Assembly (NCBI GenBank): GCA_045652845.1
Contig: JAZOLJ010000002.1
Coordinates: forward strand, 1 to 47,078
Reading direction: 5' to 3'
DNA: 47,078 nt
DNA from: Eubacteriales bacterium
Lineage (GTDB): Bacteria > Bacillota > Clostridia > Oscillospirales > CAG-272
In this document: positions 5,995-40,715 of the stretch, piece after piece
Layout: the number at the start of each line of letters is the position of its first letter
Numbering within the stretch: position 1 is the stretch's first letter
The notes under the pieces: generated by a model
The model's database searches: none
What the model saw: the letters and a program-made list of their open reading frames with translations, nothing else
What the model was told of the DNA's origin: nothing
Program-made: the position numbers and the translations under genes

Positions 5995-6044
5995 AAACCA
6001 TAACTCGTTTAATGTGCGTCGCGCACATAGAAAGGAGAACATAC

Positions 6045-9000
6045 ATGAAAAAACAGATGCGAGTTGTTCTTTTTGCGGTGTTGGTACTGTTACTGGTAAC
6101 CGTTACTGCAATTGCGGCATCCGCCGCCACGCCGTTTAGCACGGGTGAGAAAAGCTATGCCACGCTTGCGGAGGCTGCGGCTGCAGTCACCAACGGTGGC
6201 ACCATTACCGTGACGGAGGACGTTAGTCTTTCCGCCAACGCCACGCTCTCTGCAACAAAGACCTATACCCTGCAGGGAAGCACAGCCACCCGAAAGATCA
6301 CCTTCACCGGTGGCGGCTTGGTGATCAGTGCGGGCAACGTTACCATTAAAAATCTTGCCATTACGGCAAACGCTGCCAACGCCATTACGGTGAAAAATTC
6401 CGAAACCAAGCTCACCGTCAGCACCGGTGCGGTCATCACCTCAAATGGCAAAACCGACACGACGGGTCTTTCCGTGGCAGTGGCAGGCGATGCCACCCTG
6501 CTGATCGAGAATGGCAAGCTGACGGGTGCTGTCGGCTCAACCGATGAAAATGCTGCGAAGGGTGCTACTATCAAGATCACGGGCGGCACGCTGAACTCGA
6601 ACCCCAACACGCCCGCAGGCCACGTGCTGCGCGTCACCGGAGCAGACTTTCATTTAACCGTTGAGGGCGGCACCTTCAATTTTACCAGTACAAGTAACAG
6701 CTTGTCTTCCTTGCTGTATGCTGACGACACCTCCGCCACGGTCACCATCACGGGCGGCACCTTTTGGGGCAGAGGCACTGATGGCGCACCCATGCTTTAT
6801 TGCAAAAAGGGAACGTATTCCGTCAGCGGCGGCGCCTTTTACTCACAGATCCCCGGAGCAAGTGGCAATGAATCTGTCGTTTTTTGGGCAAATGGCAGCA
6901 ACTCCTCGAAGTCGGACTATACCATCTCCGGCGGCAGATTTTATGCTTATGGCGACGGCTATACCTACCCTCTTGCTGTAGATGCTTGTACCTCTATGAA
7001 GATCACGGGCGGCTTTTTTACCTTCGTTGATACGCTGGAGAGCCCCGATGACATTGATCTTACTAAGGCGAATAAAGAATATTACGTAAACTCTTTCGGC
7101 AAAGATTATTGCAACGGTGTAAGAATTCAAACCTCCACCCTCGTGGAAATTGGCGGCGGCACCTTTATGGGCGGTAAAAGCAATGCGGCACTTAACATTG
7201 CGGCAACAACAGTAAACGTGCTGATCTCGGGCGGCACCTTCTACGGCCACCGTGCGATCCAAATCAAGTCTACGGGCGGTGCGCTAACCGTTACGGGCGG
7301 CAATTTTTACCCCAACCCGGGGCAGCAGAACTGTAAGCTGCTCGATATAGATAGCTCAACTGCCGTGGTGAATATCTTCGGCGGTAACTTTGATGCCGAA
7401 TATACCGCCGCGGGTAACGTGACCTCGGGCGCGGTGATCTATTTTAAAACTTCAGGCACCGTAAACGTATACGGCGGCACCTTTCACTGCGCCTCTACCT
7501 ATAGCTCTAAAGAGAGCTCTTTGGTCAGATTTGATGCTGCCGGTACGCTTTTGCTTGACAAGGGCACCGTTGTGGTTGGCAACGGCACCTTTACGGGTAA
7601 CGGTGCCACGGTAACGTGCGGTGGTGTTGCCACAATGTTCCGCATGTGCACTGACAACGCTACCCTTACCGTAAACGCAGGCAATTTTGTGATCTCTGAT
7701 AAAGCCACCGGTATTTATGCCGAGGCGGCAGCTGTCACCACTACCGTGAACGGCGGCAGCTTCACCTCGGGTGATACCGCAACCGTGATGAACCTTCTTG
7801 CAGGCAATGTTACCGTAAACGGCGGTAGCTTCACCGGCACGGGCGCGTATTTAATTAATGTAAACATACCGAAGGATAGTGGCAGAGTTACCGTAAACGG
7901 CGGCAGCTTCACCTCGGGTGATACCGCAACCGTGATGAACCTTCTTGCAGGCAACGTTACCGTAAACGGCGGTAGCTTCACCGGCACGGGCGTGTGCCTT
8001 ATCAACGTGCTCATGTCGAAGGAAAACGGCAGCTTTACCGTAAACGGCGGTGTGTTCACGCTGAATTCCGGCTTCGCCTCCGCGGGTGGCGCCATCATTC
8101 GCACGGACATTCAGTTAATTCCGCAAAACGCAGATCAGAATTACGACCCCACCGATTTCTACTATACCTGCGATGCAACGATCGTGCTGGCAGGCGGCTT
8201 GTTTGTGGATAACAGCTCTACCAACCGCGCCATTATTGATACCACGCTCGGAGAAGCCGTTGTTGTGTATGACGGCGCGATCTTCCTTTCCCGTTACCTC
8301 CAAGCATATATCATTGCTTCCAACAACAACGTAGCTCCCAGTCTTGCCCTTGCCCCCAACGCGGCAACCTGCTCTTACCTTGGCAGCAGCTACTATTGCT
8401 ATATGACCACCGCCACCACTGATGCTAACAAGGCACCCGTAATGGAGGGCGGTGCCGGCGTTACCATCACCTCCGCGTACGAGGGCATTCGCTTTACCTC
8501 CTACATACCTGCCGCTGTGGCAGCAAATTTGCCCAAAGGCTACTCCTTTGGCACGTTGATCGCGCCTGCCGATTACGTGGTGGCAGCAGGCGGCTTTACC
8601 CATGCAAAGCTGAATGAATGGAAGGCTGCCAATAGCTCTGTTGGCACCGTATACGTTGATATCGTAGCAAAGAACAGTATAGAGGAAAATACCGACGGCA
8701 GCATTTCCTTTAGCGGCGCGCTGGTTTCCTTGAAGCAGCAAAACTACACGCGTAGCATGGCAGCCGTGGCTTACGTGCTTGCCGACGGCGTGTACTATTA
8801 CAGCACCTACGACCCCGATCAAAACGCGCGCTCGATGGCGTACGTTGCCAAGGATGCATATACGGCAATTGTAGATGCCTCCGACGAAGACCACATGAAC
8901 CACTCTCTTTATAAGAAGGGCGCACACAGCGCCTTTACCGAAGCGGAGCAGCTCATTCTCAAAGCCTACAGTGCTTATAATCACACGTGGGATAAGGCAC

Positions 9001-11540
9001 TCGTAAGTATTTCCACCAAGGTTACCTGGGGTAGCGATGCAAGCCCGAACCTGAAAACGGCAGCAGAAAACCTGAAGACCACACTGCAAGCCATGGGCTG
9101 CACCACCACCGGTGCGGTGATCCTTGTGGGTAACACGGGTGATGCCGAGGTGGCGACCGCCCTTTCCGAAATTGAAGGGAACGGCTACTACGTTGGTGTG
9201 ATCAACGGCAAGCTTGTGATCGTGGGTACCACCAACGCACTTACCATGCAGGCATTTGCATACTTTACAGGCACGTATCTTACCTCTGCCGCTGCGGGCA
9301 GGCAGGTTGAGATCTCAGAAAAGGTTGTTTCCAACGCTAAAATGGTTACGCTTAATGCAGATGCCTCCTTTGTGTTCCAGCACACCCGTGAGGGCAATCC
9401 TTACAAAAACAGTGGCGATTTGAACAAGGATATCGACTTTAACATCAGCGAAAACCACCTTTACAACTACGAGGACAACAGCAAATACGTTGACTATCCC
9501 TTGGTTGCCGCCTTTGAGATCGCCGTGGCGCTTGACGGCTCGGCAGACTATTACAATTACCTGCCCGATAACGAGGCGTTTGGCAACGCAAACATTCACG
9601 TAGGTATTACACAGCTTGCCCTTTCCACCCTGCTTGCGGGCAAGGACGTGGGCTATTACGGCTACGCACTCAAGGATGGCAACGTGATCATTTCCTCCTT
9701 TGACGATGCAACGCTGCGTCTTGCAAAGAAGCTCTTTATCGAAGATCTTGCCGATTTTGCCGCAAACGGCACCTACATGATCCCCGTGGATTATGAATTT
9801 GAAAAGGGCTATTCCGATGGCTTTACGGGCGCATTTAACAGCTATTCAAGTGATGCAACCATTCAGGCGGGCGCAAACCTTGTTGCCAAAGAGCTTTCGC
9901 TGCTTGTCACCGACTTCCCGCGCCCCAAAGATCTGCAGCTTTCGGGTGCGGTAAACGTTGATAGTAACTCGCTTGAGCTTTACTATCAAAATGTAGATGT
10001 CACCGATTACACTGCATATTGTGCATTGCTTGAGCAAAAGGGATACGACGTATACATGGCAGAGCGCGCGGTGGAGGGCAACCGCTTTGTAACCTACTAT
10101 CATCCCACCAAAAAGATCACGCTTCACGTGATGTACAATCAATATCGCTATGCCGCAAGAGAGGAGACCAACAACGGCACGTCACTCTCAAAAATGTTTA
10201 CGCCTACCCTGCGCGTGGTGGCAGCCAAGGTAGATGGCACGTACGTCAACCTTTTGCCCGAGAAATATCTCGCTCCCCAAGCTACGGGTCATAAGACCGC
10301 CACAAGGCTCACAGTTCTCGAGCTCAGCGATGGCAACTTTGGCTACTGCTATATTTACACGCTTGAGGACGGTACGTTTGTAGTCCTTGACGGTGGCGGC
10401 GGCGCTAATAACGCGGTTGATGCCGAGCGTCTTTATAACGTGCTCTCTAAGTTGCATACTGATCTTCACGGCAAGCCCGCAACCGGCAACCCCATTGTGA
10501 TCTCCGCGTGGTATGTCTCTCACGGCCACGGTGACCACATGAGAATGATGGAGTACTTTATTTCCAAGTATTGTAATGTTGAACGGGTATCCGGACTTGG
10601 CAGCATCGCTGGCTACAACTCTACCGTTCGTGTTGATGCAATCATTGGTAACTTTGCCTCCAACGACGAGGCATACAACACGTTTGACCCCAAGCAGGAC
10701 ATAGCAAACATGCTTGGCACCGATGAATGGTTTAAGAACAACGGCAAGGCAATTCCTTACTACAAGGTACACACCGGTCAGAGGTTCTATATCAAAAACC
10801 TTGAGTTTGAGGTTATGTACACGCACGAGGATATTCATCCTTGGAGCATGGACTACTTTAACAACACCACAACCGTTATCCGCCTGACGGCGCATGAAAC
10901 AGACGGCTCCGGCAGCATTCTTGCCGGTAAAAATGCGATCAGCACCATGATCCTCGGTGACCTGCAGGCACGCGGCAGCATGGTTATGCGCGCTACGTGG
11001 GGTGATTACGCCAAGTCCGATATCGTTATGTCCGCGCACCACGGCGGCCAAGGCTGTGAGGGCAAGCTCTACGAGCTGATCGACGCACAGGTCATTCTGT
11101 GGTCGCACCGTGCGCTGGGTCTGCAAAACATGCCCAACGACCTCGCGGATGCGACGTCGGCTACCCAAAAAGAAAATTTTGTATGGTTCTCGAATACCAG
11201 ATGGCTCTACATTATTACGAGTATGTCTCTTGATGCAGTCGTAGGTGACAATGCGAACTATAACGTTACCATGACGCTGACTAAGGACGGTATTGTGGGT
11301 CTTGCCGAGGGCGAGGCTGCAGCCCAAGAGTTCCTTGCGGGTCTGGATAACGTTTACGCCGGCAAGGCAGAGAAACTTGCCTTGGGTACGGGTATCATGA
11401 ACGGTGGCGATTACGTGGGCAACGGCGTGATCTTGTGGCGCGGCAACTTCACGTATCCCATGCCCGCACCCCGTCATCCTGATCCTATGGACAGCAAATC
11501 TGACACCTTTGATGAGAATCTGGTCGATATTCTTGACTGA
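6045..11540 (+). CDS. Giant (1831 aa) secreted multidomain protein: signal peptide, beta-helix-like region with a GGxF repeat array, a beta-sandwich-like middle region, and a C-terminal roughly 840-aa module ending in a metallo-beta-lactamase-fold domain
   Basis: AAAGGAGA RBS at 6031-6038 supports ATG 6045 rather than the ORF-track start at 6012. Signal peptide is MKKQMRVVLFAVLVLLLVTVTAIAASAA. About 19 [IV]xGGxF repeats. C-terminal motifs in order: VLDGGGG, SHGHGDH (10521-10538), YTHED, ILGD, SAHHGGQG. The C-terminal module aligns with both lipoproteins at 35836-40604. Confidence 0.9.
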   Translation: MKKQMRVVLFAVLVLLLVTVTAIAASAATPFSTGEKSYATLAEAAAAVTNGGTITVTEDVSLSANATLSATKTYTLQGSTATRKITFTGGGLVISAGNVTIKNLAITANAANAITVKNSETKLTVSTGAVITSNGKTDTTGLSVAVAGDATLLIENGKLTGAVGSTDENAAKGATIKITGGTLNSNPNTPAGHVLRVTGADFHLTVEGGTFNFTSTSNSLSSLLYADDTSATVTITGGTFWGRGTDGAPMLYCKKGTYSVSGGAFYSQIPGASGNESVVFWANGSNSSKSDYTISGGRFYAYGDGYTYPLAVDACTSMKITGGFFTFVDTLESPDDIDLTKANKEYYVNSFGKDYCNGVRIQTSTLVEIGGGTFMGGKSNAALNIAATTVNVLISGGTFYGHRAIQIKSTGGALTVTGGNFYPNPGQQNCKLLDIDSSTAVVNIFGGNFDAEYTAAGNVTSGAVIYFKTSGTVNVYGGTFHCASTYSSKESSLVRFDAAGTLLLDKGTVVVGNGTFTGNGATVTCGGVATMFRMCTDNATLTVNAGNFVISDKATGIYAEAAAVTTTVNGGSFTSGDTATVMNLLAGNVTVNGGSFTGTGAYLINVNIPKDSGRVTVNGGSFTSGDTATVMNLLAGNVTVNGGSFTGTGVCLINVLMSKENGSFTVNGGVFTLNSGFASAGGAIIRTDIQLIPQNADQNYDPTDFYYTCDATIVLAGGLFVDNSSTNRAIIDTTLGEAVVVYDGAIFLSRYLQAYIIASNNNVAPSLALAPNAATCSYLGSSYYCYMTTATTDANKAPVMEGGAGVTITSAYEGIRFTSYIPAAVAANLPKGYSFGTLIAPADYVVAAGGFTHAKLNEWKAANSSVGTVYVDIVAKNSIEENTDGSISFSGALVSLKQQNYTRSMAAVAYVLADGVYYYSTYDPDQNARSMAYVAKDAYTAIVDASDEDHMNHSLYKKGAHSAFTEAEQLILKAYSAYNHTWDKALVSISTKVTWGSDASPNLKTAAENLKTTLQAMGCTTTGAVILVGNTGDAEVATALSEIEGNGYYVGVINGKLVIVGTTNALTMQAFAYFTGTYLTSAAAGRQVEISEKVVSNAKMVTLNADASFVFQHTREGNPYKNSGDLNKDIDFNISENHLYNYEDNSKYVDYPLVAAFEIAVALDGSADYYNYLPDNEAFGNANIHVGITQLALSTLLAGKDVGYYGYALKDGNVIISSFDDATLRLAKKLFIEDLADFAANGTYMIPVDYEFEKGYSDGFTGAFNSYSSDATIQAGANLVAKELSLLVTDFPRPKDLQLSGAVNVDSNSLELYYQNVDVTDYTAYCALLEQKGYDVYMAERAVEGNRFVTYYHPTKKITLHVMYNQYRYAAREETNNGTSLSKMFTPTLRVVAAKVDGTYVNLLPEKYLAPQATGHKTATRLTVLELSDGNFGYCYIYTLEDGTFVVLDGGGGANNAVDAERLYNVLSKLHTDLHGKPATGNPIVISAWYVSHGHGDHMRMMEYFISKYCNVERVSGLGSIAGYNSTVRVDAIIGNFASNDEAYNTFDPKQDIANMLGTDEWFKNNGKAIPYYKVHTGQRFYIKNLEFEVMYTHEDIHPWSMDYFNNTTTVIRLTAHETDGSGSILAGKNAISTMILGDLQARGSMVMRATWGDYAKSDIVMSAHHGGQGCEGKLYELIDAQVILWSHRALGLQNMPNDLADATSATQKENFVWFSNTRWLYIITSMSLDAVVGDNANYNVTMTLTKDGIVGLAEGEAAAQEFLAGLDNVYAGKAEKLALGTGIMNGGDYVGNGVILWRGNFTYPMPAPRHPDPMDSKSDTFDENLVDILD
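6570..8210 (+). repeat. Protein-level repeat array: about 19 copies of a [IV]-x-G-G-x-F unit (irregular 25-45 aa period) inside the giant gene
   Basis: ITGGTL, VEGGTF, ITGGTF, VSGGAF, ISGGRF, ITGGFF, IGGGTF, ISGGTF, VTGGNF, IFGGNF, VYGGTF, VGNGTF, VNAGNF, VNGGSF x4, VNGGVF, LAGGLF, all read from the translation. Confidence 0.8.
7744..7992 (+). repeat. In-frame tandem duplication: two 102-nt copies (7744-7845 and 7891-7992), period 147 nt
   Basis: The copies differ at two positions only (gtgaac/gtaaac, ggcaat/ggcaac), and both changes are synonymous. Each encodes TVNGGSFTSGDTATVMNLLAGNVTVNGGSFTGTG. Confidence 0.95.
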
Positions 11541-12704: not shown

Positions 12705-12713
12705 TAAAACACC

Positions 12714-13401: not shown

Positions 13402-13430
13402 TTGACTTTGTGAATAGAATATATTAAAAT
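13402..13430 (+). promoter_or_regulatory. Sigma-A-type promoter for the SGNH hydrolase gene
   Basis: TTGACT (13402-13407), 17-nt spacer, TAAAAT (13425-13430). Confidence 0.6.
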
Positions 13431-13518
13431 AATTCCATAATGCTATGCCCGGAGGCATCTTACAGCATCGGTTTTGTTAGGCTGTTTTAAGGAGATTTTT
13501 TATGAGAGGAGATTTTTT

Positions 13519-14604
13519 ATGAGAATTGAAGATATTGATAGAAATTTTGTCGTCGAATCCGACGTTACCGAGCCTGATCTTGTGTGGTTTAATGTCAAGG
13601 AGACGCCCTTTCGGATCTACGGCGTAGAGTTTGAGGAGGAACAGGGGTGCTTTACCCGTGTGCCCGGAGCTGCGGCGGAGCTTGTTCCCGGTATCCTTGG
13701 CGCGCGTAAGTTAACCGCAGGCGGCCGCGTACGCTTTAAGACCGATTCCTCCTATATTGCTATCAAAGCGGTGATGAAAAGTATTGCGCCCATCTCTCAC
13801 ATGACCCAGCTCGGGCGCTCCGGCTTTGATCTGTATCAGAAAAAGCGCGGCAAGGACGTGTATTATTATTCCTTTATGCCGCCGATCGATATCACCGATG
13901 GGTATTCCTCCGGTAAAAGAACCGAAGGCAGGTATACCGATTACACCATCAATTTCCCCATTTATGACCGCGTGCTCGAGCTTTACGTAGCACTCAAAAA
14001 AGGCTCTCGCTTAAGTGCGCCCACACCCTATCGCGAGGAGAAGCCCGTGGTATTTTACGGCTCCTCGATCACGCACGGTGGTTGTGCCTCGCGCCCCGGC
14101 AACATTTATCCCGCGATGATCAGCCGTGAGCTGGATATCCATTATATCAATCTCGGCTTCTCTGGCAAGGCAAAGGGTGAGCCTGCTATGGCAGATTACG
14201 TGGCATCGCTTGATATGTCGGCGTTTGTGCTTGATTACGATCACAACACCCCCAGCGAGCAAAATCTCATTGACACGCACGAGCCCTTTTATAAAAAGGT
14301 GCGTGCGGCACATCCCGATATTCCGATCATTATGGTAACGGCACCCAATACAAAGCTGCAGGGTAACGTGAACTACGCCGGGCGCGGCTTCCTCTACAAC
14401 CGTCGCGATATCATTCGTAAGACTTATGAAAATGCAGTTGCCGCAGGTGATAAAAACGTATATTTTATCGACGGCCACACGCTCTTTGGCGGCAAGCATT
14501 GGGATTCTTGCACCGTTGACGGTACGCACCCCAACGACCTTGGCTTTTATCGCATGTCACAGGTGATCGGTAAGGTGTTAAAAAAAGCATTAAAAATGCA
14601 ATAA
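13519..14604 (+). CDS. SGNH/GDSL-type esterase with an N-terminal GxDLY beta-sandwich domain
   Basis: GFDLY motif in the N-terminal domain. SGNH blocks are FYGSSITHGG, GFSG, and DGTHPNDLGF near the C-terminus. ATG 13519 is preceded by GGAGA, and the ORF-track upstream extension lacks an RBS. Confidence 0.85.
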   Translation: MRIEDIDRNFVVESDVTEPDLVWFNVKETPFRIYGVEFEEEQGCFTRVPGAAAELVPGILGARKLTAGGRVRFKTDSSYIAIKAVMKSIAPISHMTQLGRSGFDLYQKKRGKDVYYYSFMPPIDITDGYSSGKRTEGRYTDYTINFPIYDRVLELYVALKKGSRLSAPTPYREEKPVVFYGSSITHGGCASRPGNIYPAMISRELDIHYINLGFSGKAKGEPAMADYVASLDMSAFVLDYDHNTPSEQNLIDTHEPFYKKVRAAHPDIPIIMVTAPNTKLQGNVNYAGRGFLYNRRDIIRKTYENAVAAGDKNVYFIDGHTLFGGKHWDSCTVDGTHPNDLGFYRMSQVIGKVLKKALKMQ

Positions 14605-32899: not shown

Positions 32900-35545
32900 T
32901 TAGCCAATTTGGGCTGCAAGCACGTCCTTTGCTGCTGCCAGAGCCTCATCAACCTGTGAAAGCTCCTTGCCGCCTGCCATGGCGTTGTCGGGGCGTCCGC
33001 CGCCCTTGCCGCCTGTTACTGCCGCAACGGCGCCAACCAGCTTGCCGGCATGTGCGCCTGCTGCAACGGCATCCTTGCCCGCAACGGCAATAAAGCTGAT
33101 GCGCGCGCCCTCGGTGATGGCAAGCACTGCTACCACGTCGGCGTTGTTTGCCTTGATGTCGTCAGCAAGGCTGCGTGCCACGTCAGGCTGCATGCCGTCA
33201 AAGCGTGCAACGGCAAGGCGCACCTTGCCGATCTGAACGCTGCCTGCCAGCACCTCGTGAAGCTTCGAGGAGGCAAGCTTTTGGTTGAGTGCATCCAGCT
33301 CGCGGTGCATTTCCTTAACCTCCTCCTGCACGGCGTGTGCACGCTTGGCAACGTCAAGCATATTTTGTGCCTTCAGTGCCTGTGCCGTATCGCCAAGCAG
33401 CCTTTCGCGTGCAGCAAGCAGGGAAAGAACGCCCGTGCCCGTTACTGCCTCAATACGGCGGATGCCTGCGGCAACCGAGCTTTCGGATGTGATCTTGAAA
33501 AGACCGATGCGTGCGGTGTTGTTGAGGTGTGTGCCGCCACAGAACTCGATCGAGAAGGTGCCCATGCGCACCACGCGCACGATCTTGCCATATTTCTCGC
33601 CAAACAGGGCAGTTGCGCCAAGCCTTTTGGCATCCTCAAGCAGCATTTCGGTCATAGAGATCGGCACGCCTGCAAAGATGTGTTCGTTTACGATCTCCTC
33701 AACCCTTGCCAGCTCCTCCTTGGTAAGGGCGGCAAAGTGGGTAAAGTCAAAGCGGCATTTGTCTGCATCAACCAAAGAGCCTGCCTGCTCTACGTGGTTG
33801 CCAAGCACCTCGCGAAGTGCCGCCTGCAGCAGGTGTGCAACCGAATGGTTTCTGGCAGTTGCCAAGCGCTTCTCTTCATCAATACGGGCGCATACCGCAT
33901 CGCCAACGCGAAGCACGCCGCCCGTTACGGTTGCAAGGTGCAGATATACACCGTCGGTCTTTTTGGTATCGTTTACGGTAAGGGTAACGTTCTTACCCGT
34001 CAGCGTGCCAATATCGCCTACCTGACCGCCGCCCTCGCCGTAAAACACGGTCTTATCAAGCACAACGGTGCAATCACCCTCGCTGATCTCGTCAACGGTC
34101 TTGGTGCCATCCTCGTTTTCCACGATAATAGCAAGCACCTTGGCGTCGTCGGTGCGGAAGCTGTCATAGCCGCGGAAGATGGTGGCAGGGAGGTCGGCAA
34201 GCAGATTCTTGGTGGCGTTATCCCAGCCGCTGATGTTGCCGCGTGCGGCGCGTGCGCGCTCACGCTGCTCCTTCATCAATTTGGTAAAGGTTTCATCGTC
34301 AGCGGTAAGGCCGTTTTCTGCCAAGATCTCCTTGGTAAGATCAAGCGGGAAGCCAAAGGTATCGTAAAGCTTAAATACGTCCTCGCCCGCGATCACGGTC
34401 TTGCCGTTTCTTTTGGCATCCTCAACGTAGCAGGAAAGGATGGAAAGCCCTGCATCAATGGTGGCATCAAATCGCTCCTCCTCCATTGCAATGACCTTAA
34501 GAATATAGTCGCGCTTTTCGGCAAGCTCGGGATAAGCCTCTTCGTTTTCACCAATGGCAACGCGGCAAAGGTCGCAAAGGAAGGCGTGGTCAATGCCAAG
34601 CAGCTTGCCGTGACGGCAGGCGCGGCGAATGATGCGGCGCAGAACGTAGCCGCGCCCCTCGTTTGAGGGAATAACACCGTCCGCGATCATAAACATGGCA
34701 CTCTTGATATGGTCGGTGCAAACGCGGATAGAAATATCGTTATCCTTATTTGCGCCGTAGGTCTTGCCCGCGATCTCACAAACGGTATCGAGGATCTTGC
34801 GGATGCTGTCGACCTCAAACATGTTGTCAACACCCTGCATCACGCAAGCAAGACGCTCAAGACCCATGCCGGTGTCAATGTTTTTCTGCGTCAGCTCGGT
34901 GTAGTTGCCCTTGCCGTCGTTGTTAAACTGGGAGAACACGTTGTTCCAGATCTCCATGTAACGGTCACAGTCGCAGCCGGGGCGACAGTTGGGGCTGCCG
35001 CAGCCGTATTTTTCGCCGCGGTCAAAATAGATCTCGGAGCAGGGGCCGCAGGGACCGGAGCCATGCTCCCAGAAGTTATCTGCCTTGCCAAGGCGCGTGA
35101 TGCGCTCGGCGGGCACGCCGATTTTCTTGTTCCAAATTTCAAACGCTTCCTCGTCGTTTTCGTAGATCGAGGGCCAGAGCAGCTCGCCCGGGATCTCCAG
35201 CGTTTCTGTGAGGAACTCCCACGCCCACGGAATTGCCTCGTTTTTGAAGTAATCGCCAAAGGAGAAGTTGCCGAGCATCTCAAAAAACGTGCCGTGCCTT
35301 GCCGTGTGACCCACGCGGTCATGGTCGCGCGTGCGGATGCATTTTTGGCAGGGGGTCACGCGGTTGCGGGGGGGCTCCTCCTCACCTGTGAAAAACTTTT
35401 TCATGGGTGCCATGCCCGAGTTGATCAGCAACAGAGATTTGTCGTTGATGGGCACCAGAGGGTAGGAGGGAAGGCGCAAATGCCCCTTGCTTTCAAAAAA
35501 AGCAAGATATTTTTCGCGCAGGTCGTTAAGAGAAGTCCATTTCAT
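32900..35545 (-). CDS. alaS: Alanine--tRNA ligase
   Basis: 881 aa. MKWTSLNDLREKYLAFFESKGHLRLPSYPLVP, FEMLGNFSFGDYFK, and the editing-domain HSVAHLL...CGGTH motifs. Confidence 0.97.
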   Translation of the reverse strand: MKWTSLNDLREKYLAFFESKGHLRLPSYPLVPINDKSLLLINSGMAPMKKFFTGEEEPPRNRVTPCQKCIRTRDHDRVGHTARHGTFFEMLGNFSFGDYFKNEAIPWAWEFLTETLEIPGELLWPSIYENDEEAFEIWNKKIGVPAERITRLGKADNFWEHGSGPCGPCSEIYFDRGEKYGCGSPNCRPGCDCDRYMEIWNNVFSQFNNDGKGNYTELTQKNIDTGMGLERLACVMQGVDNMFEVDSIRKILDTVCEIAGKTYGANKDNDISIRVCTDHIKSAMFMIADGVIPSNEGRGYVLRRIIRRACRHGKLLGIDHAFLCDLCRVAIGENEEAYPELAEKRDYILKVIAMEEERFDATIDAGLSILSCYVEDAKRNGKTVIAGEDVFKLYDTFGFPLDLTKEILAENGLTADDETFTKLMKEQRERARAARGNISGWDNATKNLLADLPATIFRGYDSFRTDDAKVLAIIVENEDGTKTVDEISEGDCTVVLDKTVFYGEGGGQVGDIGTLTGKNVTLTVNDTKKTDGVYLHLATVTGGVLRVGDAVCARIDEEKRLATARNHSVAHLLQAALREVLGNHVEQAGSLVDADKCRFDFTHFAALTKEELARVEEIVNEHIFAGVPISMTEMLLEDAKRLGATALFGEKYGKIVRVVRMGTFSIEFCGGTHLNNTARIGLFKITSESSVAAGIRRIEAVTGTGVLSLLAARERLLGDTAQALKAQNMLDVAKRAHAVQEEVKEMHRELDALNQKLASSKLHEVLAGSVQIGKVRLAVARFDGMQPDVARSLADDIKANNADVVAVLAITEGARISFIAVAGKDAVAAGAHAGKLVGAVAAVTGGKGGGRPDNAMAGGKELSQVDEALAAAKDVLAAQIG

Positions 35546-35582
35546 AGCATAGGCCTTTCATAAAGTAAAAAATATTGAAAAC

Positions 35583-35611
35583 ATTATAGCACTGTTTTCT
35601 TCTTTCGTCAA
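35583..35611 (-). promoter_or_regulatory. Sigma-A-type promoter for alaS (minus strand)
   Basis: On the minus strand: TTGACG, 17-nt spacer ending TGC, TATAAT. The leader to the ATG is only about 40 nt. Confidence 0.7.
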
Positions 35612-35752
35612 GTGCGCGTGCGCTTTTATTTCAAAAAACATACTGCAAATCTGAAATTTTTCAGGTAATGGGCATATGGTGCAAAATGGGGAAAGCGGTT
35701 TTGTTAAAAACGCCGAAAATCGTGATGTGAATGTGAAAGATTTTGTTTTTGC

Positions 35753-35781
35753 TTGCAAAAAATGCGAAGAAATGCTATAAT
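35753..35781 (+). promoter_or_regulatory. Sigma-A-type promoter for the tandem lipoprotein genes
   Basis: TTGCAA (35753-35758), 17-nt spacer ending TGC, TATAAT (35776-35781). Confidence 0.7.
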
Positions 35782-35835
35782 TATGTAACCAAAATAAGAA
35801 AGGTATGACCAACTTAAATGGTTAAAAGGGAGTAC

Positions 35836-38196
35836 ATGATGAAAAAAAGAATTTTGTCACTTGTCCTTTGTGTTTGCATGCTTTCCTCTCTTGCACTTCT
35901 TTTTACCTCGTGCGGTAAAAAGAAGGTTGATTTCGGCAAGGGCTATAGCGTTGTTTTTGCAAATGACGTTTCCGAAAGCATGGAGGCAGAGGTCAAGAGC
36001 TTTACCCAGACCTTAAAGCAAAAAACCGGCAAGGAAGCTAAGCTTGAAGAGGTTGAGCTTAATGCTTCGCTCACTGCCGAGAACGATTACGAGATCCTTA
36101 TCGGTAACACCAATCGCCCCGAAACCCAAAAGGCGCTGAAAAAGATTAAGGGTCAAGGCTACATCGTTACCGCTATCGGCAAAAAGATCGTAGTTGTGGG
36201 CACCACTAATTTTTTAACGTCGCTTGCGCTTGACGCCTTCGCCAAGAGCTATCTTGACTCGGCCCAGAGCGTTTCCTCGCTTGACCTTGAAAAGATCGAG
36301 GTCGAGGAGATGGAAATGCTTGAGTTTACCAACAAGTGGACGTTTATTCACGCCTCTTATATTGATAGCGAACGCGACTGTGTCGGCGTGGAAATTTCCG
36401 GGATCAAAGCGATTCTCTCTTCCTTCTCCGACGTGCGCGGCACGGCTATGCCTGTACGTGTTGATACCGAAACAGCAAAGCAGGAGGTTCTTGTGGGTGT
36501 TGTAGAACGTCCCGAGGCAAAGGCTATGCTTTCCGGCATGGATGCCAACAATTACGGCATTGGCGCAAAGGATGGCAAGCTTTTGATCTCCGCGCACAAC
36601 GACGGCATGCTGGCAAAAGCCCTCACGCTTTTCAAGGATGCACTGCGCGATTCGGTTTACGAGGTTGAAGGCGAGAAGAAAATTCTGTTGCCCGCAGATT
36701 TTCTGCGCATCTACGCCGACCGCGAAAGTGCGGTCGTAACCGATTTCCCGCGCCCCGAGGGGCTTGCGCTTTCTGGCAGCATTGACGTGCACGACGGCAT
36801 GGAATATTATTACGAGGGTGACGCCGTAACGGCACAGGCTTACAATAAATACTGTGAGGCACTGGTTGCTGCGGGCTATACCGTTTATACCGATAATACG
36901 GCAGAGAACAGCATCTTCCGCACCTACGTTAACACTGAAAAGAACATTACGCTTTACGTGGCGTACAATGATTTTAAGTACGCCGCCAGGGAGGAAACCG
37001 ATCATAAGAAGGCGATCCGCATCGTGGCATCCCCGCTGGATTGCGTGAATTTGCTTGAGCCCGAAATGCTTGAGCAGGATCTCACCTTTGACAGGTGGCA
37101 AAACACCACCATTACCGCGGTGAAGATGTCTTACGCATCGGATGGTGGCGGAAACATCTACGTTGTAACGCTTGAGGATGGCTCCTTCGTGTTGCTTGAC
37201 GGCGGCGTAGAGGTGCCGCAAGATGCTAAGCGTATTTATGAAGTTCTGCTTGATCTTTACGAAAGAGGTCACGGGGGTCCTCCTACAGAAAAAAATCCGA
37301 TTCGCATTGCCGCGTGGTACGTTTCTCACGGTCATCACGATCACTTTAAATCGGCTGAGCTCTTTACCAAACAGTACTGCTCAAAATACGATGAGCACTA
37401 TATCACCATCGATCGCCTGATCGCAAACTTCCCCTCCAATGAGGAGCTATATAACTCCGAGTGGGACCGCACGCCGGGCGAAAACAACTACAATTCCTCT
37501 CTGCGCGATGGATACGCAGAGCTTTCCGCAATGATTTCCGATGCTCCCGGCGAGGAGCCCGGCTTTAAATACATCAAGGTTCACACCGGTCAGCGCTTCT
37601 TCCTTGCCAACGTGGAGTTTGAGGTGATGTACACGCACGAGGATCAGTATCCCCGTCGCCTCCACGTTTACAACGATACCTCTACGGTGATCCGCATGCA
37701 TATCGTACACACCAAGGGCGGTGGCAGAGTTTCTTCCGGCTCCCTTACCACCATGCTGTGGCTTGGCGACGCACAGGAGGATTCCAGCAGATGGATGCGT
37801 GCTATGTGGGGTGACCATCTTAAGTCCGATATGGTGCAGCTTGCGCACCACGGCGGTAAGGGCTCTGAGTTTTTGCTGTATAAGCTGGTTCAGCCCGAAG
37901 CCGCATGGTATCCGGCAGGTCTGCCGAAATACAATAGAATGCAATACTCCACACTAAAAAATGCCAATGTTGGTGAGGGCTGCACGAAAATGGTGCTTTA
38001 CAGTCTCCCCTCGCTTAAGTACTTTATCATGAGTGATGTGTGTAACTACACCGTCAGCATCACGGAAGGGGGCCCTGTTTACGCTACCTCGGGTAAGGAC
38101 TGTGTGTTTAATGCAGGTAAAGATACTAACAAGGTTTTTATTAGTGAAATAGCTACCACCACAAGCAATGGCTATCTGGAGAAAAAAGAAAAATGA
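35836..38196 (+). CDS. Putative lipoprotein (786 aa): two related alpha/beta units, a DFPRP domain and a C-terminal metallo-beta-lactamase-fold domain; paralog of 38250-40604 and of the C-terminus of 6045-11540
   Basis: AAAGGGAG RBS. Signal peptide MMKKRILSLVLCVCMLSSLALLFTSC has a lipobox-like Cys. MBL motifs: LLDGG, SHGHHDH (37327-37344), YTHED, WLGDA, LAHHGGKG. Confidence 0.85.
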   Translation: MMKKRILSLVLCVCMLSSLALLFTSCGKKKVDFGKGYSVVFANDVSESMEAEVKSFTQTLKQKTGKEAKLEEVELNASLTAENDYEILIGNTNRPETQKALKKIKGQGYIVTAIGKKIVVVGTTNFLTSLALDAFAKSYLDSAQSVSSLDLEKIEVEEMEMLEFTNKWTFIHASYIDSERDCVGVEISGIKAILSSFSDVRGTAMPVRVDTETAKQEVLVGVVERPEAKAMLSGMDANNYGIGAKDGKLLISAHNDGMLAKALTLFKDALRDSVYEVEGEKKILLPADFLRIYADRESAVVTDFPRPEGLALSGSIDVHDGMEYYYEGDAVTAQAYNKYCEALVAAGYTVYTDNTAENSIFRTYVNTEKNITLYVAYNDFKYAAREETDHKKAIRIVASPLDCVNLLEPEMLEQDLTFDRWQNTTITAVKMSYASDGGGNIYVVTLEDGSFVLLDGGVEVPQDAKRIYEVLLDLYERGHGGPPTEKNPIRIAAWYVSHGHHDHFKSAELFTKQYCSKYDEHYITIDRLIANFPSNEELYNSEWDRTPGENNYNSSLRDGYAELSAMISDAPGEEPGFKYIKVHTGQRFFLANVEFEVMYTHEDQYPRRLHVYNDTSTVIRMHIVHTKGGGRVSSGSLTTMLWLGDAQEDSSRWMRAMWGDHLKSDMVQLAHHGGKGSEFLLYKLVQPEAAWYPAGLPKYNRMQYSTLKNANVGEGCTKMVLYSLPSLKYFIMSDVCNYTVSITEGGPVYATSGKDCVFNAGKDTNKVFISEIATTTSNGYLEKKEK

Positions 38197-38249
38197 TGAT
38201 CTTATACTGCAAACAACCGCAGAACGAGGTTGAATGGAGGTTCTAAAAC

Positions 38250-40604
38250 ATGAAAAAAAGAATTTTATCCCTTGTCCTGTGTGTTTGTTTGATAGCCTCG
38301 CTTTCGGCTCTTTTTAGCTCTTGCGCAAAGAAAACCGTAGAGCTGGGTGCCGGGTATCAAGTGGTTTATGCGGGCGACGTCTCCGATAGCATATCGGCGC
38401 AGATCACCGAATTTACCGACACGCTCAAGAAAAAAGCCGACAAGAATATCAAGAAAAGCAAGGTAAAGGCCGACGAGGCATTAGAAAACGTTCAAGACCT
38501 TGAAATTCTTATCGGCAACACCAATCGCCCCGAATCACAAAAGGCTTTAAAGGAGATCAAGGGGCACGGCTACATCATCGCACTTTACGGTAAAAAGATC
38601 GTTATCGTTGGTACAACCAACCTTTTAACGGCGTTGGCACTTGACCATTTTACCGAAACCTATCTTGCGGGTAAGGAAAGCGTTTCCTCGCTTACCGTTA
38701 CAAAAACCGAGGCAGAAAACGTCCCCATGCTTGAGTTTACCAACAAGTGGACGTTTGTTCACGCGTCTTATCTTGAAAGCGATCGCGACTACGTGGGTGT
38801 GAAAATCTACGAGTTAAAAGCGATGATCCCCACCTTCTCCGACGTGCGTGCTACGGCTATGCCCTTAATTCTCGATACCGATGCCGCAAATCAAGAGATC
38901 CTGGCGGGCGTGGTAAACCGCGCCGAGGCAAAGGCAGTGCTTTCGGGCATGGATGTCACCGATTACGGCATTGGTGCAAAAAACGGCAAGCTGCTGATCT
39001 CTGCACACAACGACGGTATGATGGAAAAAGCCTTCACGCTTTTCGCGGATGCATTGCGTGATTCGGTTTGCGTGGTTGAAGACGAAAAGCAAATTCTGTT
39101 GCCTGCAGATTTTCTGTTTATCTACACCGATCGCGAAAGCTCGGTCATAACCGATTTTCCGCGCCCCGAGGGGCTTGCGCTTTCGGGCAGCATTGACGTG
39201 CACGAGGGCATGGAGTATTATTACGAGGGCGACGGCGTAACGGCACAGGCTTACGATAAGTATTGCAAGTCCTTGGTGGCTGCGGGCTATACGCTTTACA
39301 CCGATAATACGGTGGAAAACAGCATTTTCCGCATATATACAAATAAAGAAAAGAATGTAACGCTTTACGTGGCGTACAACGATTTCAAGCATGCCGCCAA
39401 GCAAAAGACCGATCACAAGAAGGCGATCCGCATTGTGGCATCTCGCCTCAGTGGCGTAAATCTACTTGACCGAGATATGCTATCGCAGGATCTTTCCTAT
39501 ACCAAGCTGCAAAATTCCTCTATCACCGCAGTGAAGATGGACTACTCTAACGACGGTGGCGGAAACCTCTACGTGGTAACGCTTGAGGATGGCTCCTTTA
39601 TCCTGCTTGACGGCGGTGCACAAACTACTGCGGATACAAATAGGATCTATCAGGTATTGCTTGCGCTTTACAAAAAAGGGCACGGTAATAATATGCCTAC
39701 CACGAATGACCCTATCCGCATTGCCGCGTGGTATCTCTCGCACGGTCACCACGACCATTACGGCAGTATGGTTGCCTTTATTCAAAAATATTGTGCAAAT
39801 TACAAACAGTATTCCATCACGATCGATCGAGTGATCGCCAATTTCGCCTCCGACGAGCAGCTCTATAACTCCGAGTTTGACCGCGATCCCGGTTCCTTTA
39901 GCACTGTGGTGCGCAACAATTTGGCAAAATACTCATCGTATATCAGCGATGTTTCGGAAGAAGAGGCAGGATTTACCTATTACAAGGTGCATACGGGTGA
40001 TACGTTCTGGCTTGCAAATATCGAGTTTGAGGTTATGTACACGCACGAGGATCAGTATCCCCGCCGCTTGCACTGGTACAATGACAGCTCTGTCGTTATT
40101 CGTATGAATATACACCATACCGAGAACCGCAAAATTTCACAGGACTCCGAAACCTCCGTGCTTTGGCTTGGTGATGCGATGGACATTTCCAGCAAGTGGC
40201 TGCGCGCTACTTGGGGAGAGTATTTGCAAAGTGATATGGTGCAGATCGCGCACCACGGCTCGAAGGGCTGCGAGCTTGCGCTGTATCAGCTGATAGCACC
40301 CACCTGCGCTTTGTGGCCGAACAGCGTTAAAAATTTCAACGACAGATACCATAACCCCAAATCCACAGACTGGCGGCGTGTTGGTTACGGCATCTGCTAT
40401 GAAATACCGACCTTGAAATATATCATTATGTGCGACGTTTATAATTATACCGTTACCATCACAAAGACGGGGGCTGATTACAGCATTGGTGGCAACACCG
40501 GTATTTGCACTGTGGGAGAAGACGTATCGTCGCCTATCCGCTACGATAGAGTTTCCTCAACCACAACGAGCGGCATAATGAAGACAAAGTATTGTACAGA
40601 TTAA
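38250..40604 (+). CDS. Putative lipoprotein (784 aa), tandem paralog with the same architecture
   Basis: GGAGG RBS. Signal peptide MKKRILSLVLCVCLIASLSALFSSC. MBL motifs: LLDGG, SHGHHDH (39741-39758), YTHED, WLGDA, IAHHGSKG. Alignable end to end with the upstream gene. Confidence 0.85.
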   Translation: MKKRILSLVLCVCLIASLSALFSSCAKKTVELGAGYQVVYAGDVSDSISAQITEFTDTLKKKADKNIKKSKVKADEALENVQDLEILIGNTNRPESQKALKEIKGHGYIIALYGKKIVIVGTTNLLTALALDHFTETYLAGKESVSSLTVTKTEAENVPMLEFTNKWTFVHASYLESDRDYVGVKIYELKAMIPTFSDVRATAMPLILDTDAANQEILAGVVNRAEAKAVLSGMDVTDYGIGAKNGKLLISAHNDGMMEKAFTLFADALRDSVCVVEDEKQILLPADFLFIYTDRESSVITDFPRPEGLALSGSIDVHEGMEYYYEGDGVTAQAYDKYCKSLVAAGYTLYTDNTVENSIFRIYTNKEKNVTLYVAYNDFKHAAKQKTDHKKAIRIVASRLSGVNLLDRDMLSQDLSYTKLQNSSITAVKMDYSNDGGGNLYVVTLEDGSFILLDGGAQTTADTNRIYQVLLALYKKGHGNNMPTTNDPIRIAAWYLSHGHHDHYGSMVAFIQKYCANYKQYSITIDRVIANFASDEQLYNSEFDRDPGSFSTVVRNNLAKYSSYISDVSEEEAGFTYYKVHTGDTFWLANIEFEVMYTHEDQYPRRLHWYNDSSVVIRMNIHHTENRKISQDSETSVLWLGDAMDISSKWLRATWGEYLQSDMVQIAHHGSKGCELALYQLIAPTCALWPNSVKNFNDRYHNPKSTDWRRVGYGICYEIPTLKYIIMCDVYNYTVTITKTGADYSIGGNTGICTVGEDVSSPIRYDRVSSTTTSGIMKTKYCTD

Positions 40605-40673
40605 CCGCAGAGCTGATGAGCTCTACTCCAAAGCTTAAAGAAGCCACTTGTTAAAAAGTGAAATAACATAAAA

Positions 40674-40702
40674 AGAGCAAACGTTTCGTTTGCTCTTTTT
40701 TA
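40674..40702. terminator. Bidirectional rho-independent terminator
   Basis: AGAGCAAACG-ttt-CGTTTGCTCT flanked by AAAA and TTTTTT. It lies between the convergent lipoprotein and coaW genes. Confidence 0.85.
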
Positions 40703-40715
40703 CTTTATTTTGTGA

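Follow-up and report, generated by a model that had tools for sequence, protein, structure and literature searches.

Two adjacent genes, A and B, in the 47,078-nt stretch of DNA analysed here (the window) encode what we consider, with moderate confidence, to be lipid-anchored, binuclear-metal phosphodiesterases that form a lineage-specific tandem duplicate at a native locus and are members of a large family of extracytoplasmic proteins that has no name. The substrate would most likely be extracellular DNA or RNA, with a phosphodiester-linked glycopolymer as the second candidate.

Layout of the locus and architecture of the proteins

Genes A (35839-38196) and B (38250-40604) both lie on the forward strand and are separated by a 53-nt spacer (38197-38249). 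The features used below are as follows, with positions counted from the first letter of the window.

6012..11540, + strand: third family member, 1842 aa (family HMM 566 bits, profile positions 79-742)
35753..35781, + strand: sigma-70-type promoter-like site upstream of gene A, 10/12 in a consensus scan, presumed function
35839..38196, + strand: gene A, ORF for a predicted 785-aa lipoprotein, paralogue of B, with the full set of metallo-beta-lactamase (MBL) motifs
38250..40604, + strand: gene B, ORF for a predicted 784-aa lipoprotein, 61% identical to A
38250..38324, + strand: predicted signal peptide and lipobox, B residues 1-25 (lipobox positions conserved, Cys25 invariant)
38325..38687, + strand: GH20b-like domain 1, B residues 26-146 (AF2, Foldseek, hhalign; motif EILIGNTNRPES)
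38748..39137, + strand: GH20b-like domain 2, B residues 167-296 (AF2, Foldseek, hhalign; duplicate of domain 1)
39138..39464, + strand: small alpha/beta domain 3, B residues 297-405 (AF2, conservation)
39513..40601, + strand: MBL-fold domain, B residues 422-784 (Pfam/NCBIfam, AF2, Foldseek, conservation)
40670..40700, both strands: bidirectional intrinsic-terminator-like hairpin, found scanning each strand

Gene A has in-frame starts at 35818, 35836 and 35839. The last is the most likely, as it gives an MKKRILSL... N-terminus, has a GGGAG (35828-35832) 6 nt before it, and matches a public 785-aa product; the original prediction had the frame right and placed the start at 35836, one extra Met upstream. 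Gene B has a GGAGG 9 nt upstream of its start. The ORF coordinates and a scan for terminator-like sites, which found none in the spacer, bear out the description of two same-strand genes 53 nt apart with no terminator between them. The single promoter and single terminator proposed to bracket the pair also find their counterparts, the first in the promoter-like site (TTGCAA-17 nt-TATAAT with an extended -10 TG) and the second in the hairpin, which has a perfect 14-bp stem with an A run on its 5' side and a T run on its 3' side and is common to gene B on the forward strand and the convergent coaW on the reverse strand. A and B are probably co-transcribed from the one to the other.

The two proteins align over their full length (61% identical, 78% similar), just as had been judged by eye, and their N-termini share the pattern MKKRILSLVLCVC...(T/S)SC. 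In B, MKKR is followed by the hydrophobic core ILSLVLCVCLIASLSALF and then SSC, giving a lipobox L-F-S-S-C, and this signal peptide is the sole hydrophobic segment of the protein. Cys25 is invariant in 80/80 homologues, which carry F/L at -3, S/A/T at -2 and S/A/G at -1. At the level of sequence pattern, both proteins have the charged N-terminus, hydrophobic core and lipobox [LVIF][ASTG][GAS]C of a lipoprotein, as anticipated, and the lipobox pattern is matched by 195 of 244 family proteins. Cys25 is the predicted site of lipidation.

An architecture of signal peptide, two domains resembling the N-domains of GH20 (GH20b) and GH84 glycosidases, a small alpha/beta domain and an MBL domain is confirmed at the level of an AlphaFold2 model (for full-length B, pLDDT 94.4 and pTM 0.89; for the N-terminal 390 residues, pLDDT 91.1) together with Foldseek, HMM and hhalign searches. 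Domain 1 adopts a beta-alpha-beta-beta-alpha-beta-beta-alpha topology in the model. A comparison of residues 30-146 with residues 160-296 by hhalign (probability 99.6%, E 6e-24) shows that the internal duplication giving domains 1 and 2 is real, and Foldseek searches with the N-terminal part of the protein match only GH20 and GH84 N-domains, in support of the two GH20b-like copies first suggested. Pfam detects Glyco_hydro_20b, NAGLU_N or GH67N in a few family members (best E 6e-9 for Glyco_hydro_20b and 4e-8 for GH67N); Glyco_hydro_20b (PF02838) is found in 4 of 56 members and falls below significance in A and B themselves. To our knowledge, GH20b-like domains otherwise occur only next to glycosidase barrels. 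Here, the remainder of the protein in the model is an alpha/beta domain and an MBL domain, and Pfam finds no (beta/alpha)8 glycosidase barrel (PF00728) in A, B or the 56 members.

Domain 3, which is preceded by a conserved TDFPRPEG motif and has the topology beta-beta-alpha-beta-beta-beta-beta, shows the highest conservation within the protein (82% identity between A and B). No PDB match could be attributed to it, and a possible match is a 124-aa phage 'lipoprotein' in BFVD. Searches against curated models returned no family that spans the full length of A or B, as the original prediction had supposed.

Family distribution and origin of the pair

With clustering at 50% identity, the same architecture is carried by at least 2051 clusters when the threshold is E<1e-30, and the count rises to 5541 with E<1e-10. 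The architecture had been called unassigned; this holds in that no curated full-length family covers it, and needs qualifying in that it is far from rare. The family has no curated model, solved structure or paper, and its members are labelled 'hypothetical' or 'MBL fold metallo-hydrolase' in databases. As far as seen, the hosts are only uncultured Clostridia, from digesters and from the guts of herbivores and humans, within the Oscillospiraceae and relatives. Arrays reach 6 tandem copies, and one MAG holds at least 7 copies. In long variants the lipobox is replaced by SPI signals or membrane anchors, which makes the family consistently extracytoplasmic, and giant variants are joined to adhesin-like or BspA-LRR regions. 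Gene A scores about 1000 bits against the family HMM. The third member in the window is a long variant of this kind, with an SPI-type signal peptide followed by about 1000 aa of beta-helix/adhesin-like sequence, for which Pfam gives only a weak hint of a Pectate_lyase_5 adhesive domain, and then the family module at residues 1031-1761 (DFPRP at 1301, HGHGDH at 1504, HHG at 1676).

The pair had been read as a horizontally acquired, compositionally foreign accessory island placed between the core genes alaS and coaW, and its GC content (0.500 and 0.483 for A and B) is indeed below that of alaS (0.563), coaW (0.547) and the window (0.531). The dip is modest, however, and the figures of 70% taken from single lines of flanking sequence exaggerate the contrast; equally low 1-kb stretches occur elsewhere in the window (0.466-0.474 at 3001-4500 and 0.474-0.484 at 12501-14000). 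The GC3 of A and B (0.58-0.59) falls within the range of window genes (0.576-0.69), close to its lower limit, and the deficit sits mainly in GC1 and GC2, and so reflects amino-acid composition. Moreover, family GC3 follows host GC3 in 18 loci from other genomes. No integrase or transposase is present in the ORF list of the region, no mobile-element genes are found among the recurrent neighbours, and a search of Rfam gave no matches; nor did a tRNA or a flanking repeat stand out.

Synteny also argues against a recent acquisition. The order alaS-[1 to 4 copies]-coaW-HAD-NFACT-topA recurs in relatives, and the slot between alaS and coaW stays filled down to about 68% AlaS identity, with a single copy in lineages at 68-71% identity. 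Relatives with alaS directly beside coaW, which an island would lead one to expect, do exist, in that the slot holds 0, 1, 2, 3 or 4 copies among relatives and in two of them (L082, from a human gut, and L083) the gap from coaW to the next gene, alaS, is about 100-140 nt and contains no member of the family; these are the only two such cases. A neighbour-joining tree pairs A with B as sisters and places the distant single-copy loci at its base. As the nearest relatives of each other, A and B point to a lineage-specific tandem duplication, and they are recently duplicated copies. The island reading is thus largely refuted, and we regard it as very improbable; the pair is native to its chromosomal site and not foreign DNA. 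One ancestral copy between alaS and coaW would have undergone repeated tandem duplication, to 1 to 4 copies here and up to 6 elsewhere, with occasional loss.

The metal-ligand site and candidate functions

The C-terminal MBL fold foreseen from motifs is supported by the model (pLDDT 94.4) and by Foldseek, which gives probability 1.00 to many MBL-fold structures. The motifs LLDGG, SHGHHDH, YTHED, WLGDA and AHHG occur in this order in both A and B. PF00753 matches 45 of 56 members, with A just above the cutoff (22.9 versus 22.7 bits) and B below it (18.4). Across 80 of 80 sequences, D454, H498-x-H500-x-D502-H503, N611, D642 and H668-H669 are invariant, although the sequences are only about 28-60% identical, and HxHxDH is found in 240 of 246 family proteins; variability is greatest in the C-terminal tail (701-784). 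The claim of a complete ligand series stands as to the five motifs and their order, while it is doubtful that YTHED supplies the motif III ligand, since its histidine, H599, is present in 54/80 sequences (H581 in 73/80) and N611 in 80/80. N611 lines up with an Asn in solved ComEC/Rec2, within the region where ComEC is reported to carry its motif III Asn, and probably acts as the motif III ligand in place of the YTHED histidine.

The original prediction placed the domain in the ComEC/COG2333 branch, and this assignment is upheld. NCBIfam ComEC models match 17-19 of 56 members (best E 1e-11), and the family profile aligns to solved ComEC/Rec2 (9vc9, 9vc6) through 'P...N(N/D)xS..R', 'GD' and 'HHG', which correspond to motifs III-V. 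By sequence, the C-terminal nuclease domain (CTD) of ComEC is the nearest named relative of the MBL domain, a remote one given TIGR00361 scores of 13.8 and 24.2 bits for the pair against a cutoff of 190. Other NCBIfam matches are to the anti-phage 6A-MBL and Avs1a MBL models, RNase J, RNase Z and, in 4 of 56 members, bla_class_B_core. Sequence similarity to characterised MBLs is weak throughout, with PDB E-values of 0.002 or worse; a PDB sequence search with profile A1 ranks the alkyl/aryl-sulfatase YjcS first (E 0.0017, 19.7 bits), in a partial alignment from motif II to the 'ThED' region. In structure searches of the PDB, the C-terminal part matches 1zkp (an ELAC homologue), YhfI (6kns), PNGM-1, RNase J, RNase Z and a PhnP-family diphosphatase, with E-values of 1e-7 to 1e-4.

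Several of these relatives are known phosphodiesterases. In the class II MBL phosphodiesterases YhfI and RNase Z, HxHxDH holds two Zn (PMC9117128), and the ComEC CTD has been shown experimentally to be a Mn-dependent phosphodiesterase/nuclease with a motif III Asn and a His-to-Asp variant of motif II (PMC8579336). We propose that the product is exported, that its signal peptide is cleaved, and that it would then be anchored through a lipid on Cys25 to the outer face of the cytoplasmic membrane. The two GH20b-like domains, the small alpha/beta domain and the catalytic MBL domain would form one compact fold, in which D454, HxHxDH (498-503), N611, D642 and HH (668-669) serve as the putative binuclear-metal ligand set. 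A metal-activated water or hydroxide would cut a phosphodiester bond of an extracellular polymer at the cell surface, and the GH20b-like domains may shape or present the substrate. Several observations count against this reading: the intact HxHxDH is unlike the motif II of ComEC, the sequence matches to characterised MBLs are weak, and GH20b-like domains are otherwise known only in glycosidases. Pfam finds no recognisable nucleic-acid-binding domain in either protein, gene neighbourhoods reveal no functional partner, with only housekeeping genes recurring, and a divergent multi-paralogue expansion is unusual for a non-specific nuclease and better fits substrate diversification or surface variation.

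A rival reading is a glycopolymer phosphodiesterase, in which the GH20b-like domains recognise sugars while teichoic acids, phosphoglycans or capsules are cleaved at their phosphodiester links by the MBL domain. The target polymers could be the cell's own, for wall remodelling, or those of neighbouring microbes, for foraging or antagonism, with tandem paralogues tuned to different polymers. Consistent with this, the N-terminal domains match only N-domains of HexNAc-active glycosidases, the paralogues are divergent and arrayed, the tail is variable, and giants include BspA-LRR or adhesin-like regions. Among solved structures, the ComEC study (PMC8579336) places Pce/CbpE, a phosphorylcholine esterase acting on teichoic acid, nearest to the ComEC CTD; Pce/CbpE has HxHxDH, and the family keeps this motif. 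The function of GH20b domains is obscure even in glycosidases, however, so their presence is no proof of sugar binding; Pfam detects neither a CBM nor choline-binding repeats across A, B and 56 members, Pce appears neither among the PDB sequence matches at E<=1 nor among the top 50 Foldseek matches, and no teichoic-acid or glycan-utilisation genes recur nearby. We judge this reading unlikely. In its bolder form, the module would be an unrecognised class of surface enzyme cleaving phosphodiester-linked glycopolymers (teichoic acids, phosphoglycans, capsules), which uncultured gut Clostridia would have multiplied, as tandem arrays and as giants fused to adhesins, in order to feed on the envelopes of microbes around them or to attack these. 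We regard this form as quite unlikely.

A surface-displayed MBL hydrolase acting on other bonds (an alkyl/aryl- or glyco-sulfatase, lactonase, thioesterase or beta-lactamase) is suggested by the YjcS and bla_class_B_core matches and by E600 and D601, which are better conserved than H599 and presumably resemble the carboxylate ligands of MBL sulfatases. It appears decidedly improbable: the YjcS match is partial, Pfam finds no alkylsulfatase dimerisation or SCP2-like domain, motifs III-V align with ComEC instead, and the structural neighbours are phosphodiesterases and nucleases, with the partial exception of PNGM-1, which we take to be a beta-lactamase with RNase Z-like features. A large, divergent, tandemly expanding family with adhesin-joined giants might also be expected of a catalytically silent surface or binding protein (an adhesin, receptor or antigen family) on a retained MBL scaffold, but the invariance of every metal-ligand position at this level of divergence is unexpected without catalysis and makes such a role hardly credible.

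Under the favoured reading of a surface phosphodiesterase, defining the substrate would annotate thousands of surface proteins in abundant uncultured gut bacteria, give GH20b-type domains their first functional context outside glycosidases, and give the ComEC-type MBL domain a second biochemical setting. Should the glycopolymer-cleaving class prove true, it would be a phosphodiesterase counterpart to glycoside-hydrolase repertoires. For annotation, the locus illustrates that an amino-acid-driven GC dip can mimic an island.

Comparison with known systems

The family resembles the CTD of ComEC/Rec2 (COG2333; TIGR00361), which likewise faces the outside of the cytoplasmic membrane, in the succession P...N(N/D)xS..R ... 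GD ... HHG(S), with the Asn aligned at motif III. It differs in its full HxHxDH, where ComEC has the His-to-Asp variant, in its scores far below the TIGR00361 cutoff (24 versus 190 bits), in its predicted lipid anchor and three unrelated domains ahead of the MBL domain, and in lacking the OB/DUF4131 domain and polytopic competence channel; Pfam matches neither Competence (PF03772) nor DUF4131 in A, B or 56 members. The best fold matches to the catalytic domain come from class II MBL/RNase Z-type enzymes (1zkp of B. anthracis, YhfI 6kns of B. subtilis, RNase Z, RNase J, the PhnP-family diphosphatase 6b9v; E 1e-7 to 1e-4, TM about 0.5-0.6 when normalised by target length), which share the binuclear HxHxDH site. 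These are cytoplasmic, small and dimeric, are without GH20b-like domains, and are 10-14% identical in sequence to the family.

Domains 1 and 2 have the same alpha/beta fold as the zincin-like, GH20b-type N-domains of GH20, GH84, GH89 and GH67 enzymes, examples being B. bifidum lacto-N-biosidase (4h04), Paenibacillus Hex (3gh7) and C. perfringens NagJ (2cbi). Unlike those glycosidases, the family has the domain twice in tandem, and what comes next is an MBL domain and not a (beta/alpha)8 barrel. An identity as an MBL-type alkyl/aryl-sulfatase (SdsA1/YjcS) is not supported, as the accessory-domain families of these enzymes have no Pfam match and the YjcS alignment is low-scoring and limited to motifs II-III. 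Pce/CbpE is, like the family, a surface-located MBL protein with HxHxDH, and differs in its choline-binding repeats. Haloarchaeal surface nuclease homologues annotated 'ComA' offer a precedent, as they have a COG2333 MBL domain (PMC3929857); they are archaeal and carry a thermonuclease domain that the family lacks, and, compared by description, they share with it a COG2333-type MBL domain without the ComEC channel and are related to a surface lipoprotein nuclease of extracellular DNA metabolism.

The gene pair, its signals and its export

Analysis of the region between alaS and coaW confirmed that it contains a tandem gene pair, which we refer to as A and B. The features of the pair are as follows.

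35818-38196, + strand: open reading frame of gene A (ORF list)
38250-40604, + strand: open reading frame of gene B (ORF list)
35753-35781, upstream of gene A: promoter-like site TTGCAA-17-TATAAT with TG (consensus scan)
40670-40700, both strands: hairpin with a perfect 14-bp stem between an A run and a T run (scan)

The original prediction started gene A at 35836, which reads MMKKR; the gene itself stands, but the next ATG, at 35839, fits better, with GGGAG 6 nt upstream, a product beginning MKKRILSL as in gene B, and agreement with a 785-aa protein in the public collection. The 53-nt gap between the genes is free of terminator-like sites by scan, and the one promoter-like site and one terminator-like hairpin expected to bracket the pair were both found. 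Because the hairpin scores on both strands, it would also serve the convergent coaW. The two products, expected to be identical at a majority of positions, align end to end with 61% identity and 78% similarity.

Several further signals lie within or around the genes. Promoter-like sites (TTGACG-17-TATTAT, 10/12 matches) occur at equivalent positions within A and B (36782-36810 and 39193-39221, +), overlapped by short terminator-like hairpins at 36786-36801 and 39197-39212; as they are located in a highly conserved coding stretch (...IDVH(D/E)GMEYYY...), codon conservation probably explains these sites. A 12-bp inverted repeat, CTTCTTTTTACC...GGTAAAAAGAAG (35896-35925, +), scored as terminator-like within the signal peptide and lipobox coding of gene A (LLFTSCGKKK), and is probably a chance product of Phe/Leu and Lys codons. 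For alaS, a strong promoter-like site was scored at 35611-35583 (-). Long ORFs of 284-538 aa run antisense to alaS and gene A (33050-34666, +; 34709-35563, +; 36214-37344, -), and their translations, which are of low complexity with much Arg, Gly, Ala, and Cys, suggest shadow ORFs opposite G+C-rich coding sequence and not genes. An Rfam search of the whole window (1-47078) returned no family at gathering score and no detectable T-box or riboswitch near A and B, and the 290 nt upstream of alaS (35546-35835) showed no T-box leader.

At the level of pattern, both proteins carry the anticipated lipoprotein-type signal peptide, in which MKKR and a hydrophobic core are followed by (T/S)SC. The lipobox Cys is invariant, with F/L at -3, S/A/T at -2, and S/A/G at -1, and lipidation at this residue (Cys25 of B) is predicted from the sequence. 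Of 244 family proteins, 195 carry the pattern, and several of those that do not seem to have truncated starts. SPI-type signals or a membrane anchor occur in the long family variants, so the family is consistently extracytoplasmic.

A four-domain fold with an invariant metal-ligand set

The architecture proved to be unassigned, as had been proposed, with no curated model, solved structure, or paper covering it in our Pfam, NCBIfam, PDB, and literature searches. Pfam Lactamase_B scores 22.9 bits on A and 18.4 on B, and the NCBIfam model of the ComEC_Rec2 C-terminus 24 bits against a cutoff of 190. A PDB search with a single protein sequence gave nothing significant and searches with two family profiles gave marginal matches only, while literature searches on GH20b plus MBL, COG2333 secreted nucleases, and ComEC-like lipoproteins yielded no paper on the family.

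The AlphaFold2 model of the full protein, built from an 80-sequence alignment, is confident and compact (pLDDT 94.4, pTM 0.89), and the exported protein has four domains. In Foldseek searches against the PDB, matches to the N-terminal part are restricted to the N-terminal domains of GH20 and GH84 glycosidases, and a separate model of residues 26–415 (pLDDT 91.1) again returns only GH20 and GH84 entries. Pfam agrees in a few family members (Glyco_hydro_20b, 6e-9; GH67N, 4e-8; or NAGLU_N), which bears out the suggested GH20b resemblance. Domains 1 (residues 26–146) and 2 (167–296) have the same topology, and hhalign shows them to be homologous (probability 99.6%, E 6e-24); the proposed internal duplication is therefore correct. 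A third, small alpha/beta domain (residues 297–405), preceded by the motif TDFPRPEG, shows no relation to domains 1 and 2 by hhalign; it is the part most conserved between A and B (82% identity; the MBL domain has 59%, the C-terminal tail 30%). In the viral library BFVD, Foldseek aligns a 124-aa phage "lipoprotein" (A0A8S5P7D6) over ~119 columns (TM 0.52 normalised by target length), which may correspond to domain 3. Two unnamed BFVD proteins, F8UBN2 (354 aa, E 1e-13) and B6CXF5 (940 aa, E 2e-12), are MBL matches over ~365 columns and outscore every PDB match of the model.

As expected for the predicted MBL fold, the PDB matches of the C-terminal 360 residues are phosphodiesterases and nucleases of that fold: 1zkp (ELAC homologue), YhfI (6kns), PNGM-1, RNase J, RNase Z, and a PhnP-family diphosphatase (E 1e-7 to 1e-4). 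The first-named YhfI and RNase Z are described elsewhere (PMC9117128) as two-zinc MBL phosphodiesterases of class II. The five motifs originally listed (LLDGG, SHGHHDH, YTHED, WLGDA, and AHHG) are present in A and B in the same order. Across 80 homologues, 28–61% identical to B, residues D454, H498, H500, D502, H503, N611, D642, H668, and H669 are invariant; H581 is kept in 73 and H599, the His of YTHED, in 54. The claim of a complete ligand series thus holds for HxHxDH, D454, D642, and the HH pair but is doubtful for YTHED. The MBL domain has an invariant binuclear-metal ligand set, and a non-catalytic role is hardly to be expected.

ComEC models are the commonest named matches among 56 members (17–19 members, best E 1e-11), followed by the anti-phage 6A-MBL, Avs1a MBL, RNase J, and RNase Z. 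Aligned to solved ComEC/Rec2 (9vc9, 9vc6), the family profile reads yPxxxxxfNdsstviR...lwlGD...vAHHg against sPqtakggNNaScvlRi...llsGD...apHHGs. According to Silale et al. (PMC8579336), the C-terminal domain of ComEC lies outside the cytoplasm and is an Mn-dependent phosphodiesterase and nuclease; it differs from the Zn enzyme Pce in that one His of motif II is Asp and the His of motif III is Asn. We take the conserved ComEC/Rec2 Asn that aligns with N611 to be this motif III Asn; the motif II histidines are all kept, and the domain appears to be a ComEC-branch (COG2333) MBL with a classical HxHxDH. The ComEC matches and the N611/GD/HHG alignment uphold the branch first proposed. The nearest relatives by both sequence and structure hydrolyse phosphodiesters, mostly in nucleic acids or nucleotides. 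Only one signal disagrees: over motifs II-III the alkyl/aryl-sulfatase YjcS matches in part, at 19.7 bits. A non-phosphoester chemistry is improbable.

Family distribution, locus history and base composition

A word-indexed search found 147 relatives, all in Clostridia/Oscillospiraceae MAGs and named "hypothetical" or "MBL fold metallo-hydrolase". An exhaustive profile search of cluster representatives returned 9849 at E<=1e-3, of which 5541 reach 1e-10 and 2051 reach 1e-30; each of the top 150 exceeds 498 bits, and many are proteins of 1100–6405 aa with the four-domain module at the C-terminus. Species-representative genomes hold at least 390 confirmed relatives. All of the best 80 belong to uncultured Clostridia, Oscillospiraceae, or Eubacteriales; they come from the gut (deer, sheep, human, and other samples) and from anaerobic digesters, and a MAG often has several loci. 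When the fetched loci were surveyed locally with the HMM, 147 family ORFs were counted, in tandem arrays whose size ranges from 1 to 6, including five full copies plus a fragment at one locus (L026:1-13030), and single MAGs carry at least 7 copies over 3 loci (SIG702) or at least 6 loci (SGB_5146). Multiple copies or loci were also noted at L005/L019, L006, L021, L031, and L057. The survey revealed a third member in the window.

6012-11540, + strand: third family member, 1842 aa (local HMM survey)

This protein has an SPI-type signal peptide (…AIAASAA), then ~1000 Thr/Gly-rich, beta-helix/adhesin-like residues, and the module at residues 1031–1761 with HGHGDH, HHG, and DFPRP intact. Pfam gives it a weak Pectate_lyase_5 "adhesive domain" hint; this and a BspA LRR were the only informative matches in it and five long variants. 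Its locus, which has GerA and a GDSL esterase among the genes close by, shows synteny with four other loci (L053, L059, L071, and L074).

Relatives with proteins 38–47% identical to B keep them in the same place, murG-ftsZ-alaS(-)-family-coaW(-)-HAD-NFACT-topA. When neighbours were clustered across 79 loci in search of a functional partner, only housekeeping genes recurred widely: AlaS (26 loci), CoaW (25), NFACT (23), and HAD (22), plus TopA, FtsZ, and MurG. Other neighbours (a BspA-LRR protein, a transglutaminase-like protein, an AraC regulator, an ABC/ECF fusion, a GDSL esterase, and GerA) are sporadic, inconsistent, and functionally unrelated. The slot holds one copy in seven loci, including the most distant (AlaS 68–71% identical), two in the window and four distinct relatives, three in one, and four in four. 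A metagenome scan with CoaW for relatives lacking the pair gave 9 loci, most too short; in the two informative ones (L082:2677-6157, human gut, and L083:362-1597), coaW is followed by alaS on the same strand after ~100–140 nt with no family gene between (CoaW 65–67% identical; L082 AlaS 72% over 819 aa); at least one lineage therefore has an empty slot. The pair is accessory to that extent, but the family otherwise holds the slot down to the most distant AlaS. In a neighbour-joining tree of slot copies, A and B are sisters, several other lineages have their own duplications, and the single-copy genes of distant loci branch off at the base. Most simply, the slot began with one ancestral copy, which was repeatedly duplicated in tandem within separate lineages and occasionally lost; alternatively, the empty slot could reflect primary absence in a sister lineage. 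The ORF list, recurrent neighbours, and Rfam revealed no mobile-element genes or RNA features at the pair boundaries.

The pair is AT-richer than its flanks, as first noted (GC 0.500 in A and 0.483 in B, versus 0.563 in alaS, 0.547 in coaW, and 0.531 in the window), but it is not foreign in composition. GC3 (0.59 and 0.58) is at the low end of the range of other window genes (0.576–0.69), and other 1-kb stretches have equally low GC. The deficit is largest in GC1 and smaller in GC2, and is therefore due to amino-acid composition; compared with AlaS, A and B have more Tyr, Thr, and Ser and less Ala, Gly, and Arg. In 18 loci from other genomes, family GC3 tracks the host, from 0.49 (neighbours 0.53) to 0.69 (sole neighbour 0.74), and GC1 is below that of neighbours in all 18, usually by 0.05–0.13. 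Since their GC3 is within range and that of the family follows the host, A and B are ameliorated residents. We rejected horizontal transfer of a foreign island because GC3 tracks the host and distant relatives hold the same slot.

Candidate substrates and comparison with known systems

A and B would be lipid-anchored surface phosphodiesterases. We tentatively rank extracellular DNA or RNA first among possible substrates, as every named neighbour points there and haloarchaea have surface nuclease homologues with a COG2333 domain (PMC3929857). A phosphodiester-linked glycopolymer ranks second and is rather unlikely; in its favour, motif II is the classical HxHxDH, as in Pce and unlike the ComEC variant, and the arrays of divergent copies, like the fusions to adhesins, point to diversification of the substrate. 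It is also favoured by the accessory domains, since to our knowledge GH20b-type domains occur elsewhere in glycosidases only.

As a surface phosphodiesterase, the protein would work as the C-terminal domain of ComEC does, or as class II MBL phosphodiesterases do, but on the cell surface. Membership in known families was rejected in each case: A and B differ from ComEC in having no channel or OB domain and score far below its cutoff, and from GH20 in the absence of a catalytic barrel. They also fall outside both enzyme families first offered as alternatives: they lack the choline-binding repeats of Pce and the accessory domains of MBL sulfatases, and the YjcS match is low and partial. Nothing in the family as found here is mechanistically surprising, and its size and lack of annotation make it a good target for characterisation. 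The MBL-fold surface hydrolase is a known kind of enzyme, while the accessory-domain architecture is new and widespread.
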